Shown in pieces: positions 2,521 to 5,232 of a DNA stretch of 5,911 bases; position 1 is the stretch's first letter, and the number at the start of each line of letters is the position of its first letter. Below the pieces are notes generated by a model. It was not told where the DNA came from and did not search any database. It saw nothing but the letters and a program-made list of their open reading frames with translations. The DNA is from a virus. Its lineage: Duplodnaviria > Heunggongvirae > Uroviricota > Caudoviricetes. Location of the stretch: positions 1 to 5,911 of IMG/VR virus record IMGVR_UViG_2778261094_000002; one strand, given 5' to 3'. The translations under genes and the position numbers were made by a program.

Positions 2521-3049
2521 TATCGCGTCCTCAACAATGAATTTTGTGATGCGGCGCCTGGTGCCTCCAGGTGACGTTAACCAGTAAACCATTAACGCCG
2601 GATTGTTAGTTGATGTCTGTTACGCAAGTAAAAGACCGCTTGTTTTAACTGTTCCGCGTGCGCTGAGCCGCATTCACCGCATCACAAAATTCACTTTAAA
2701 AGGGGCGGGTATCACGGGAAAAACAAAACGAATACCCGCCAAAAGGTAATCAACATGGGTTGTTGTAGCGGAGTTGTCACTCAGGCGTATGGTCAACCTG
2801 ACAACCCGGTGTCCTCAACGGGGAAGGAATAACCCCGCCATACTTACCGCCGCGCCATTTCGCGGAGTGCCACAACCGGAAGCGCACGGTCGACGAAAAT
2901 TTAACGACAGGCTATCTATGAACCAGCAACCTCGCCGTGCGCTTTCGCGTTATGCTCTGACTTTTCAGAGAAATATCCTTTCAGTAAACTGTCAGTGCCG
3001 GATGTTCACCCGTGGAGAACTCCTTAATTACCAACCCTCAGGAGGGTGA

Positions 3050-3283
3050 ATGTTAAAATCAACTCTTATTGCTAAATGCCTTTATCAAAATCGCATGGTA
3101 AGCAGCATTTCAATAGGCGAGTCTGCAGTTAAAAGTATTTTCGAAGAGTACTTTTCCGGGCATGATTTTAATAAATGGAATACCAAATTACCGCCAGCAG
3201 TTTCAACGCGTATTCTGAAAGCAACTGAAAGAGCAAGTACAATTCGCGTTAACTATTTCATTAAAGATTTGTGGGATCTTTGA
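3050..3283 (+). CDS. Hypothetical 77-aa protein, AT-rich, lysine-rich; transcribed opposite to the leftward operon
   Basis: ATG at 3050 preceded by AGGAGGG (3040-3046). Translation MLKSTLIAKCLYQNRMVSSISIGESAVKSIFEEYFSGHDFNKWNTKLPPAVSTRILKATERASTIRVNYFIKDLWDL, stop TGA at 3281-3283. Codon usage is AT-biased relative to the flanking genes. No recognisable family. Confidence 0.5.
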   Translation: MLKSTLIAKCLYQNRMVSSISIGESAVKSIFEEYFSGHDFNKWNTKLPPAVSTRILKATERASTIRVNYFIKDLWDL

Positions 3284-3668
3284 TATCCACAGAGCCTAAA
3301 GTATGTGCATATGGATGTGCTATTGTGCGCCCTCGCAGATTTGCATCATTTTCTAAATTCACTGAACGAAACAGGGCATCAACAAGGCTCTGTACAATGC
3401 AAAGGCAATCGAAGACTGTCGCCGTTTCTGTTTTGATTGATGAAAGAACATGGCCATTCACGCAAACAGAAATTACCCGTTTATTAACATCGCTTTCCTG
3501 CTTTTGATTATCAGAACCATATAGCCCAGAAAAAGCATTGCGCACATTACGAACCATATTATCGATGGTTTCTTTTTTGGTGTATGCCGGGTCAATTTTC
3601 ACCAGACTATCACCGAGAGTCGTTGCAGCAATTGTCTGGATTTCTTTTGGTAAATCTTTAAATTCCAT
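3261..3668 (-). CDS. Hypothetical 135-aa protein
   Basis: ATG at 3668..3666 with GAGG 6 nt upstream; stop TAA at 3263..3261. Translation MEFKDLPKEIQTIAATTLGDSLVKIDPAYTKKETIDNMVRNVRNAFSGLYGSDNQKQESDVNKRVISVCVNGHVLSSIKTETATVFDCLCIVQSLVDALFRSVNLENDANLRGRTIAHPYAHTLGSVDIKDPTNL has protein-like composition and no predicted TM segment. No family recognised. Its 3' end overlaps the plus-strand 77-aa ORF by 23 bp. Confidence 0.6.
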   Translation of the reverse strand: MEFKDLPKEIQTIAATTLGDSLVKIDPAYTKKETIDNMVRNVRNAFSGLYGSDNQKQESDVNKRVISVCVNGHVLSSIKTETATVFDCLCIVQSLVDALFRSVNLENDANLRGRTIAHPYAHTLGSVDIKDPTNL

Positions 3669-3690
3669 TATTAGCCTCGTTGGTTAGCTA

Positions 3691-3909
3691 TTAACGTGGG
3701 TATGTAATCATTCTGGCAATGCTTAATGCCGCTGCTTTTTCCAGATTGGTGATATCCTGCTCCAGAGCGGACAGATTTTCAGCCTGCTTAGCCCTGGCTT
3801 CATTGGCCCATTTCAGGTCCTGCGCAGCCTTAATTTTCTGGTGCATCCACTCATAAAGTTCATCATCGGTATAGTCTGGCGCGATGATGACGGGTTCTCG
3901 TTTCTGCAT
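3691..3909 (-). CDS. Hypothetical 72-aa protein, probably helical / coiled-coil-like C-terminus
   Basis: ATG at 3909..3907 preceded by GAGGAA with 5-nt spacing; stop TAA at 3693..3691. Translation MQKREPVIIAPDYTDDELYEWMHQKIKAAQDLKWANEARAKQAENLSALEQDITNLEKAAALSIARMITYPR. Confidence 0.6.
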   Translation of the reverse strand: MQKREPVIIAPDYTDDELYEWMHQKIKAAQDLKWANEARAKQAENLSALEQDITNLEKAAALSIARMITYPR

Positions 3910-3938
3910 ACTGATTCCTCGCGGTGCTGCTTCGCTTA

Positions 3939-4067
3939 TCAGCCGTTAGATTTTGCCGGGCTGGAAAGCGCCTGTTTAAATTCGCTGAAGCTGAGGGCTT
4001 CTTCGCCTTCGGCAAGGCCTTCGAAGTATTCTTCGTAAGCCTTTTCCATGATTGTGTCGAAATCCAT
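3939..4067 (-). CDS. Hypothetical acidic 42-aa protein, too short to appear in the supplied ORF track
   Basis: Found by manual minus-strand translation: ATG at 4067..4065, one nt after the upstream gene's TGA (4071..4069), preceded by AGGTGGG. Translation MDFDTIMEKAYEEYFEGLAEGEEALSFSEFKQALSSPAKSNG, stop TGA at 3941..3939. It fills the gap between two better-supported genes in a third frame. Size resembles the very small Rac proteins YdaF/YdaG, but I cannot assign identity. Confidence 0.4.
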   Translation of the reverse strand: MDFDTIMEKAYEEYFEGLAEGEEALSFSEFKQALSSPAKSNG

Positions 4068-4068
4068 A

Positions 4069-4305
4069 TCACCCACCTGAATCTCTTTCCAGCCAGCGAC
4101 GCGCTCCAGATTCGGTTTTAAACGTTTTGCTTTTGGTATACGTCATTGCGGTGAACGTGCCGTCCTGGTTTGGAAACACGCCGTACACCAGAGATTCGTT
4201 GTTGCCAAGATCGATAGTATCCATGCTGACCTCATTCCCCCTTAACGCCGGGGTAGCGGAACAAAAACCTGCTGCATAGTTATTAAAGTTGAACCCTGCC
4301 GTCAT
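4069..4305 (-). CDS. Hypothetical small protein, first gene of the leftward operon; 78 aa from ATG 4305, or 51 aa from the internal ATG at 4224
   Basis: Both candidate starts have a GAGG 5-9 nt upstream. Translation MTAGFNFNNYAAGFCSATPALRGNEVSMDTIDLGNNESLVYGVFPNQDGTFTAMTYTKSKTFKTESGARRWLERDSGG, stop TGA at 4071..4069. Confidence 0.5.
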   Translation of the reverse strand: MTAGFNFNNYAAGFCSATPALRGNEVSMDTIDLGNNESLVYGVFPNQDGTFTAMTYTKSKTFKTESGARRWLERDSGG

Positions 4306-4401: not shown

Positions 4402-4430
4402 ATGGTAACAAGAGTTACCATTGAAGTCAA
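4402..4430 (-). promoter_or_regulatory. PL-like leftward early promoter with embedded operator palindrome (OL)
   Basis: Minus-strand reading: TTGACT (4430..4425), 17-bp spacer, TGT-TACCAT extended -10 (4410..4402). The perfect palindrome GGTAAC-aaga-GTTACC (4404-4419) lies between -35 and -10. Further GTAAC/GTTAC-like half-sites occur at 4351-4355 and 4437-4441. Confidence 0.4.
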
Positions 4431-4462: not shown

Positions 4463-4487
4463 AAAAAACCCGCAATGAATGCGGGTT
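4463..4487 (-). terminator. Rho-independent terminator of the repressor gene
   Basis: Minus-strand reading, 5 nt after the repressor TAA stop: AACCCGCA-TTCAT-TGCGGGTT followed by TTTT (GC-rich 8-bp stem at 4467-4474 / 4480-4487, 5-nt loop, six consecutive T including the stem end). Confidence 0.65.
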
Positions 4488-4492
4488 CTGAC

Positions 4493-5167
4493 TTAGTCTA
4501 AGTATTGATGTATTTGTGAAACTTTACCTTTAATAGTGTAACCGACATTCAGTTCAATGGGTTTGTAAAGCGGGTTCAGTGACAACAGATAGATGTTTGG
4601 TCCGTCAATCGCAACTTTTTTTAGTGTTACGTTTGGCGTACCCTCCAATTGGATTAAGATTATTTTTCCCACCAGTTCTCTAATGTTACTTGAGCATGGT
4701 GTGATCAGCACGGTAGATCCGTCTGGGATTGTTGGGAGGCCGTTAGAGTTCGTCATCGAATCTCCCTCAACGTGCAATAAAAAAGAGTTTTCAGCGGTTT
4801 TTGTCATGACATCAACCCAATTCTTAATACCAGGAATCTCGGTTACTGGGCAACTCATATCCCAATAACCAGCCTGTTCCCACGTTAAAACGGGCAACCG
4901 GGCGATGTTGTCACTAATGTAAAGGTACTGATTCAGACGCAGATCATCGGCTTTATCGTGATCGTCCTTTCCATAAAGAATCCATTCAGGAGATTTTGAA
5001 AGCAATTTTGACAGCAGATGCAAATTCTCACCGTCAGGTTTTGAAGAGCCATTTTCCCATTTTGTTACGGATACACGAGTTATGCCGATTGCTTTTGCAA
5101 CCTGCTCTTGGGTTAGTCCAACGTCTTTTCGACGATTCCGAATACGTTCGCTGATAGTGTTTTTCAT
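4493..5167 (-). CDS. CI/LexA-like prophage repressor: N-terminal XRE-type HTH plus C-terminal S24 peptidase (autocleavage) domain, 224 aa
   Basis: HTH segment LTQEQVAKAIGITRVSVTKWENG. S24 catalytic motifs GDSM (Ser) and TLKK (Lys). Candidate Ala-Gly cleavage site in the linker (EQAGYW). Stop TAA at 4495..4493. I chose the start at ATG 5167 (MKNTISERIRNRRK...) because the HTH then begins about 17 residues in and 91 bp of intergenic space remains for operators. ATG 5209 (14 residues longer) overlaps a consensus TTGACA. The track's start at 5416 is a TTG that would overlap the divergent cro-like gene. Confidence 0.8.
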   Translation of the reverse strand: MKNTISERIRNRRKDVGLTQEQVAKAIGITRVSVTKWENGSSKPDGENLHLLSKLLSKSPEWILYGKDDHDKADDLRLNQYLYISDNIARLPVLTWEQAGYWDMSCPVTEIPGIKNWVDVMTKTAENSFLLHVEGDSMTNSNGLPTIPDGSTVLITPCSSNIRELVGKIILIQLEGTPNVTLKKVAIDGPNIYLLSLNPLYKPIELNVGYTIKGKVSQIHQYLD

Positions 5168-5202
5168 GTAATCAATGTTACTACCAAGTAATGTCACTAT
5201 GG

Positions 5203-5232
5203 TTGACATTGCGATGTAACTATTGTTACCCT
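5203..5232 (+). promoter_or_regulatory. PR-like rightward early promoter with embedded operator (OR)
   Basis: TTGACA (5203-5208), 18-bp spacer, TGT-TACCCT extended -10 (5224-5232). Inverted repeat GTAAC-tatt-GTTAC (5216-5229) overlaps the -10. Architecture mirrors the PL-like element on the other side of the repressor gene. Additional half-site-like repeats at 5177-5197. Confidence 0.4.

Follow-up and report, generated by a model that had tools for sequence, protein, structure and literature searches.

We found that the tightly packed cluster of leftward small genes at positions 3691 to 4305 of the window (the whole stretch of 5,911 nucleotides that was analysed) consists of ydfA, ydfB, and ydfC, which open the early-left operon of a lambdoid prophage of the Qin family as its first three cistrons; in K-12 this is the dicBF operon. 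The window covers the prophage's immunity and early-left region, in E. coli. Both the identification of the three genes and their reality are secure, and we put at roughly 90% the probability that the whole is best explained as the ydfABC genes of a dicBF-type operon whose products would be early binders of other macromolecules. The three genes have long been annotated in E. coli prophages: since they are real and conserved and already catalogued, the cluster is ordinary as a finding and adds no new feature.

The cluster is carried by about four-fifths of complete E. coli genomes, often in multiple copies, and by viable phages, and the early-left promoter expresses its genes before any others. 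Should one of the three be an anti-defence or regulatory factor, this would explain the retention of so small a cassette across many immunity types, and the few phage micro-proteins that are understood would gain another member. What the present analysis contributes is the correct start of ydfA (giving 51 aa), firm coding evidence for ydfB, including a 29-residue core, and structural leads.

Identity of the cluster and its surroundings

A 901-base query around the cluster matches the E. coli FDAARGOS_1077 chromosome (NZ_CP068155.1) with 100% identity and has hits in 4389 out of 5426 complete E. coli genomes (~80%; median of two places per genome), far above chance expectation. RefSeq coding sequences named ydfA, ydfB, and ydfC lie in NZ_CP068155.1 at exactly the positions of the three leftward ORFs, all on the minus strand: ydfA (51 aa) at 4069..4224, the 42-aa ydfB directly after it at 3939..4067, and, after ydfB, the 72-aa ydfC at 3691..3909. 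All three proteins match PHROG families (YdfA phrog_751; YdfB phrog_2061 at 9.1e-28; YdfC phrog_1744 at 2e-39). YdfA also matches PF07151 (DUF1391) at 96.6 bits (E = 6.5e-28) over profile positions 1-47 of 48, well above the curated gathering score of 27.3, and so belongs to the DUF1391 (YdfA-YdaF) family. The packed arrangement is thus as originally predicted, except for the claim that three different frames are used: the starts at 4224 (or 4305) and 3909 are 0 mod 3 and that at 4067 is 2 mod 3, so that there are only two. The 42-aa ORF had been described as missed, which holds for the size-limited ORF track; it is otherwise well recorded, being listed in RefSeq as ydfB and also a gene of K-12.

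The cluster is transcribed leftward from a promoter just past the terminator of the repressor gene. A consensus scan places this PL-like promoter at 4430..4402 on the minus strand (sigma-70-like TTGACT-17 nt-TACCAT with a TG extension), in agreement with the PL-like promoter originally proposed. It is overlapped by an operator palindrome, GGTAACAAGAGTTAC, at 4404..4418, which is 93% complementary to 5216..5230, beside the rightward promoter, and on which the repressor would act. A terminator hairpin (4466..4489) separates the promoter from the repressor gene (4493..5167, minus strand), whose product has Pfam matches to HTH_3 and Peptidase_S24 (1.8e-16 and 1.1e-17, respectively) and is named "LexA family protein" in RefSeq. 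This CI/LexA-type repressor presumably controls the ydfABC cluster. RefSeq begins the repressor gene at 5209 (4493-5209, minus strand; 238 aa); counted from the ATG at 5167, the protein would be 224 aa long, with its HTH from residue 7-9. Rightward beyond the repressor lie a P22-Cro-like gene and a YdaT-like gene.

Going leftward from ydfC, two extra ORFs are followed by a long leader, dicB, a DUF1482 gene that resembles ydfD, and the genes for a large exonuclease and an integrase. The dicB assignment scores 137 bits with NF049927 (cut-off 100), and the DUF1482 protein shares 76% identity with YdfD of K-12. The order is therefore that of a dicBF-type operon: a promoter just past the repressor gene, then ydfABC, then dicB and a ydfD-like gene. 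At the site orthologous to K-12 dicF (~2700..2750, minus strand), the flanks are conserved and the sequence between them has diverged, with a 9-nt deletion and a changed loop; the terminator hairpin and U-run of this allele are retained (z = -2.9). The Rfam DicF model finds no match in the window at E up to 1. The wider Rfam scan of the window returns nothing within 3691..4305, and elsewhere a terminator look-alike and a sub-threshold match to STnc100, a Salmonella sRNA family, in the leader just upstream of dicB (2543-2691, minus strand; 29.9 bits against a gathering score of 47; E = 0.0011).

The two extra ORFs occupy a 634-bp insertion relative to K-12 (3037-3670), located between ydfC and the dicF leader and found in only some related prophages. 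They are convergent, with 3′ ends overlapping by 23 nt: orf135 at 3261..3668 on the minus strand (phrog_1363) and orf77 at 3050..3283 on the plus strand (phrog_10348). Neither has a match in Pfam, NCBIfam, or PADLOC.

Start codons and coding evidence

Among 96 related loci, gathered from one-genome-per-species contigs and viral contigs and onto which the window proteins were mapped, ydfA, ydfB, and ydfC each begin at a start codon and follow a ribosome-binding site of their own, and these are conserved. The ATG that gives the 51-aa YdfA is present in 93 out of 93 relatives, with a GAGG Shine-Dalgarno sequence 5 nt upstream. In contrast, the in-frame ATG 27 codons further upstream, which underlies a 78-aa form, occurs in only about one-third of related loci, and among the 90 loci with enough upstream sequence it is confined to the window-type allele. 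Other alleles have no ATG there, a double frameshift (MTAGTLCITAQQVF vs. MTAGFNFNNYAAGF), or stops at -12, -13, or -18 codons. The leader is conserved only in its last ~40 nt, which contain the ribosome-binding site. Some phage records, for example that of Tritos, do annotate the first gene as a 78-aa protein from 4305; this ATG and a GAGG 9 nt upstream of it exist in the window allele, and versions of 77-83 aa are common in gene-caller output. However, the Pfam domain begins only at residue 29 of the long form, RefSeq and K-12 use 51 aa, and most alleles lack the extension or interrupt it by a frameshift or a stop codon. We consider the 78-aa protein extremely improbable and reject it, and treat 4225..4305 (minus strand) as the non-coding 5′ leader of ydfA. 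The predicted conservation of ORFs and starts among related prophages accordingly stands for the 51-aa ydfA, for ydfB, and for ydfC, and fails for the extension.

Leaders of other immunity types (L005, L026, L048, and most other loci) have a small hairpin ~45-60 nt upstream of ydfA, in which the sequence varies and the pairing is kept (ACACC..GGTGT, ACAGC..GCTGT, and ACAACGA..TCGTTGT). The window's own ydfA leader has no obvious counterpart by eye. Leader RNA was no more structured than shuffled controls.

As judged from substitution patterns, all three genes are kept intact by purifying selection. For ydfA the dN/dS is 0.12, with 8/8/31 variable sites at the first, second, and third codon positions among 28 unique full-length sequences; for ydfC it is 0.30, with 6/9/19 variable sites among 30 sequences. 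A GAGGA Shine-Dalgarno sequence stands 6 nt upstream of ydfC, and the 29-nt spacer after ydfB is conserved. A second ydfC allele has 59% identity to the first and shares its first 22 residues.

The ydfB gene required a wider comparison. Among close relatives (23 unique full-length sequences) its dN/dS is 0.27 and its variable sites are distributed 8/8/11, a codon-position signal that is weak alone because diversity is low. We therefore extended the comparison of a 29-codon core to distantly related sequences from prophages, those of Citrobacter among them. Synonymous divergence over this core (pS of 0.39, 0.84, and 1.0) is in places saturated or nearly so, set against a non-synonymous divergence of only 0.07-0.14; for the distant relatives the values are pS 0.84-1.0 and pN 0.11-0.14. 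The conserved core comprises residues 7-35 (KAYEEYFxxLAEGEEALSFSEFxxAxS) and is 40-50% identical in distant phages. A profile search of 1.84 billion representative proteins yields only 79 clusters, nearly all of 29-90 residues and with the common core (Y)EEYFxxLxEGEExLSFxEFxxAxS. The conserved core, the saturated synonymous sites, and these clusters together indicate that ydfB encodes a real, conserved micro-protein that has no Pfam family (the Pfam search with YdfB gave no match).

The junction between ydfA and ydfB had been described as TGA-T-ATG, which is how it reads on the minus strand at 4071..4065, and it is kept in 79 out of 80 related loci; the two genes are probably translationally coupled. 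The length of 42 aa is kept in 71 out of 81 loci. The protein is acidic, as had been proposed, with a pI of 4.05 and a net charge of approximately -7.5, and its RefSeq entry, its conserved junction, and selection at the amino-acid level bear out the suggestion that it is a real gene. In eight of the 81 loci (L034, L035, L036, L039, L050, L051, L059, and L084), ydfB has recombined at codon 34 into a longer ORF of 143 or 191 aa with a CPICG motif, and ydfC is missing; this ORF matches phrog_35040 and the contexts of the "ECs_2282 family zinc-binding protein" of O157-type genomes.

These data bear on whether the ORFs encode functional proteins at all, or whether the region is only a leader for carrying or processing the DicF/dicB transcript. 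What the operon is known to produce is DicF, DicB, and YdfD; DicF is excised from a ydfABC-dicF precursor; and published work gives ydfABC no known function. However, all three genes show selection on their amino-acid sequences, the YdfB core persists in distant phages, start codons and ribosome-binding sites are conserved, and the genes are also found where dicF is absent. A role as leader alone is therefore very unlikely.

Mobility of the cassette and possible roles of its products

The cassette is found behind at least five unrelated repressor types with its internal spacing unchanged. The comparison of loci shows that a 592-bp cassette moves as a unit between prophages of different immunity and that each gene can also stand alone. 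YdfB follows YdfA in 81 out of 93 loci. DUF1391 genes unaccompanied by ydfB or ydfC occur in Rac-type loci and in a non-lambdoid phage, a Pantoea lietduovirus. Conversely, a solitary YdfB-like gene comes first past the repressor in Rac-like prophages of Citrobacter and in one other enterobacterial prophage, and a 42-kb metagenomic contig that carries phage-type genes has a further YdfB-like gene within a row of small early genes. Viable phages also carry the cassette: the early-left arm of Tritos comprises ydfA, ydfB, ydfC, DicF, dicB, ydfD, exonuclease VIII, xis, and int. Four metagenome-assembled genomes labelled Collinsella, Veillonella, Nanosynbacter, and Sphingomonas (L004, L007, L013, and L016, respectively) have the cassette at 70-96% protein identity, most likely through binning contamination or mislabelling.

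AlphaFold2 predicts YdfA as a beta-beta-beta-alpha domain (pLDDT 77.7; strands at 15-18, 24-27, and 32-35, helix at 38-49). The predicted fold is most like small nucleic-acid-binding domains of the AP2/ERF and dsRBD types. The YdfC model (pLDDT 88.3) has a short N-terminal strand segment and one long helix of ~55 residues (15-69), with no fold match. By inspection, YdfB looks like two short helices around an EGEE turn. By computed charge and pI, YdfA and YdfC are mildly acidic, and none of the three proteins has a long hydrophobic stretch by eye. Sequence searches of the PDB with YdfA and YdfC give chance-level matches only; one of them pairs YdfA weakly with the head decoration protein of lambda (E = 0.25) and may be the reason for the label "head-DNA stabilization protein D" in some phage records. 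Pfam and NCBIfam assign no function to YdfB or YdfC, and PADLOC returns nothing for these two; its sole match for YdfA, to AbiEi, is at chance level (E = 0.007, 14 bits).

Characterised small lambdoid early-left proteins bind and modulate macromolecules, for example DicB acting on MinC. In a lysogen, the ydfABC promoter would be silenced by the CI/LexA-type repressor and would fire upon induction or infection. All three products would then be small, soluble, and cytoplasmic, with YdfA forming a beta-beta-beta-alpha domain (51 aa), YdfB an acidic peptide predicted to be helical (42 aa), and YdfC a single long helix (72 aa). Because none has a predicted catalytic fold, the most likely role for YdfA, YdfB, and YdfC would be to bind and modulate another macromolecule early in phage development, a proposal drawn from size, fold, and analogy.

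In K-12, ydfABC are the promoter-proximal genes of the dicBF operon and are described, in papers of 2016, 2023, and 2024, as small proteins of "unknown function" (PMC5069750; PMC10448788; bioRxiv 10.1101/2024.09.21.614188). A 1146-nt ydfABC-dicF RNA and longer read-through species (-dicB-ydfD) are made from the DicA-repressed promoter dicBp (PMC5069750; PMC10448788), and DicF is cut out of the ydfABC-dicF precursor (PMC10448788). When the operon was placed under Plac with dicF and dicB deleted and ydfABC and ydfD intact, growth, viability, and shape were wild-type-like (PMC5069750). Normal growth without dicF and dicB argues against ydfABC being toxic or division-blocking at the single-copy level, and for this reason we reject a toxin or division-inhibitor role; at that level of expression YdfABC would be neither cell-killing nor division-blocking. 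The filamentation of the Keio ydfA::kan strain disappeared after removal of the kan cassette, and its authors suggest read-through from the kan promoter into downstream genes. In a directed-evolution study YdfC served only as starting material, and the wild type was without activity. Our literature search on ydfA, ydfB, ydfC, DUF1391, and dicBF found no assigned function, no mention of "DUF1391", and no direct evidence of translation of YdfA, YdfB, or YdfC. The "ydfA" and "ydfB" of IncI1-type plasmids appear, from their plasmid operon context, to be different genes and were set aside.

Three more specific forms of the binder explanation can be distinguished. The first takes YdfABC as putative anti-defence proteins or inhibitors of host factors that would disarm the host as the earliest products made upon induction. 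YdfB, with its acidic character, might act as a mimic of nucleic acid or of a host peptide; the long helix of YdfC might inhibit a host nuclease or protease. This form is possible, if short of even odds. The genes stand at the very start of the early-left operon and are non-toxic, the cassette is mosaic and behaves as an accessory element, YdfB is strongly charged (~-7.5), and YdfB-like genes come first past the repressor in unrelated prophages as well as among the small early genes of the metagenomic contig. Set against this, no phenotype has been reported, and hhalign comparisons of the three ydfABC alignments with the lambda PL proteins N, Ral, CIII, Kil, Gam, Ea10, and orf28 reveal no relation: the best result, YdfC with the C terminus of Bet, has a probability of 7%, and all others are ≤0.2%. 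In addition, Cronobacter phage phiES15 has a ydfA/ydfB region alongside genes annotated as Kil and a host-nuclease inhibitor, so this region is no simple replacement for either. A narrower version centers on YdfB, as an uncurated family of acidic micro-proteins of ~29-45 residues (core YEEYF-x2-L-x-EGEE-x-LSF-x-EF) that would be peptide mimics neutralising a host defence or regulatory protein. In temperate phages of enterobacteria, genes of this type are often the first to be read from the early-left promoter; YdfA and YdfC could then be further independent early binders of like kind. We regard this version as rather doubtful.

The second form assigns to at least one of the proteins a regulatory role in the phage's own early programme, either in read-through of the dicF terminator to dicB, exonuclease, xis, and int, or in tempering the toxicity of DicB, DicF, or YdfD. 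In these phages no N gene is recognisable in the stretch from PL to the first terminator, and ydfA stands where N would be expected, which makes it N-like by position; the predicted resemblance of YdfA to AP2/ERF and dsRBD domains points the same way, and both terminated and read-through transcripts are made in K-12 (PMC10448788). Even so, we judge such regulation unlikely.

The third form, in which YdfA and YdfB are an obligate pair (a complex, or a toxin-antitoxin-like system), would account for the one-base junction between them. Its conservation in all but one of 80 loci, the frequent succession of the two genes, and the pairing of a near-neutral with a strongly acidic protein are consistent with such a partnership. 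However, YdfA occurs alone in Rac-type and other loci, YdfB-like proteins occur alone in Citrobacter and other prophages, and induction of the operon revealed no toxicity. An obligate pair is thus improbable.

Comparison with known systems

The closest known counterpart is the dicBF operon of the K-12 Qin prophage, which has the same gene order (ydfA-ydfB-ydfC-dicB-ydfD) and the same spacing. By blastn, the K-12-type Qin locus (L002) is 95.8% identical to the window over a sharply bounded segment of 592 bp (3671..4262, minus strand), the cassette common to both, and the flanks are unrelated. The encoded proteins are 96% (YdfA), 98% (YdfB), and 97% (YdfC) identical to those of K-12. The two prophages differ in four respects. 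The window encodes a full CI/LexA-type repressor with an S24 peptidase domain, whereas Qin has the short DicA; the 634-bp insertion adds two ORFs between ydfC and the dicF leader; the putative dicF allele has diverged from that of K-12 and is not recognised by the Rfam model; and, unlike the cryptic Qin, the window prophage looks intact, with an integrase, a full-length exonuclease, and replication genes.

In the Rac prophage, the DUF1391 homologue YdaF (~88% identical to YdfA) holds the same position behind the repressor. However, ydfB and ydfC are lacking, the unrelated ydaG precedes ydaF, and sieB, kilR, and ydaE follow it.

The PL operon of lambda (N, Ral, orf28, CIII, Kil, and Gam) likewise consists of short early genes behind PL. 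In lambda itself (L103), an annotated 28-aa, extremely acidic orf28 (MEEEFEEFEEHPQDVMEQYQDYPYDYDY) is located at 6772-6858, beside ral; it resembles ydfB in position and has no sequence homology to it. Several of the small PL-operon proteins of lambda act through binding a host protein, and the likeness of ydfABC to them would be one of possible working mode rather than of family.
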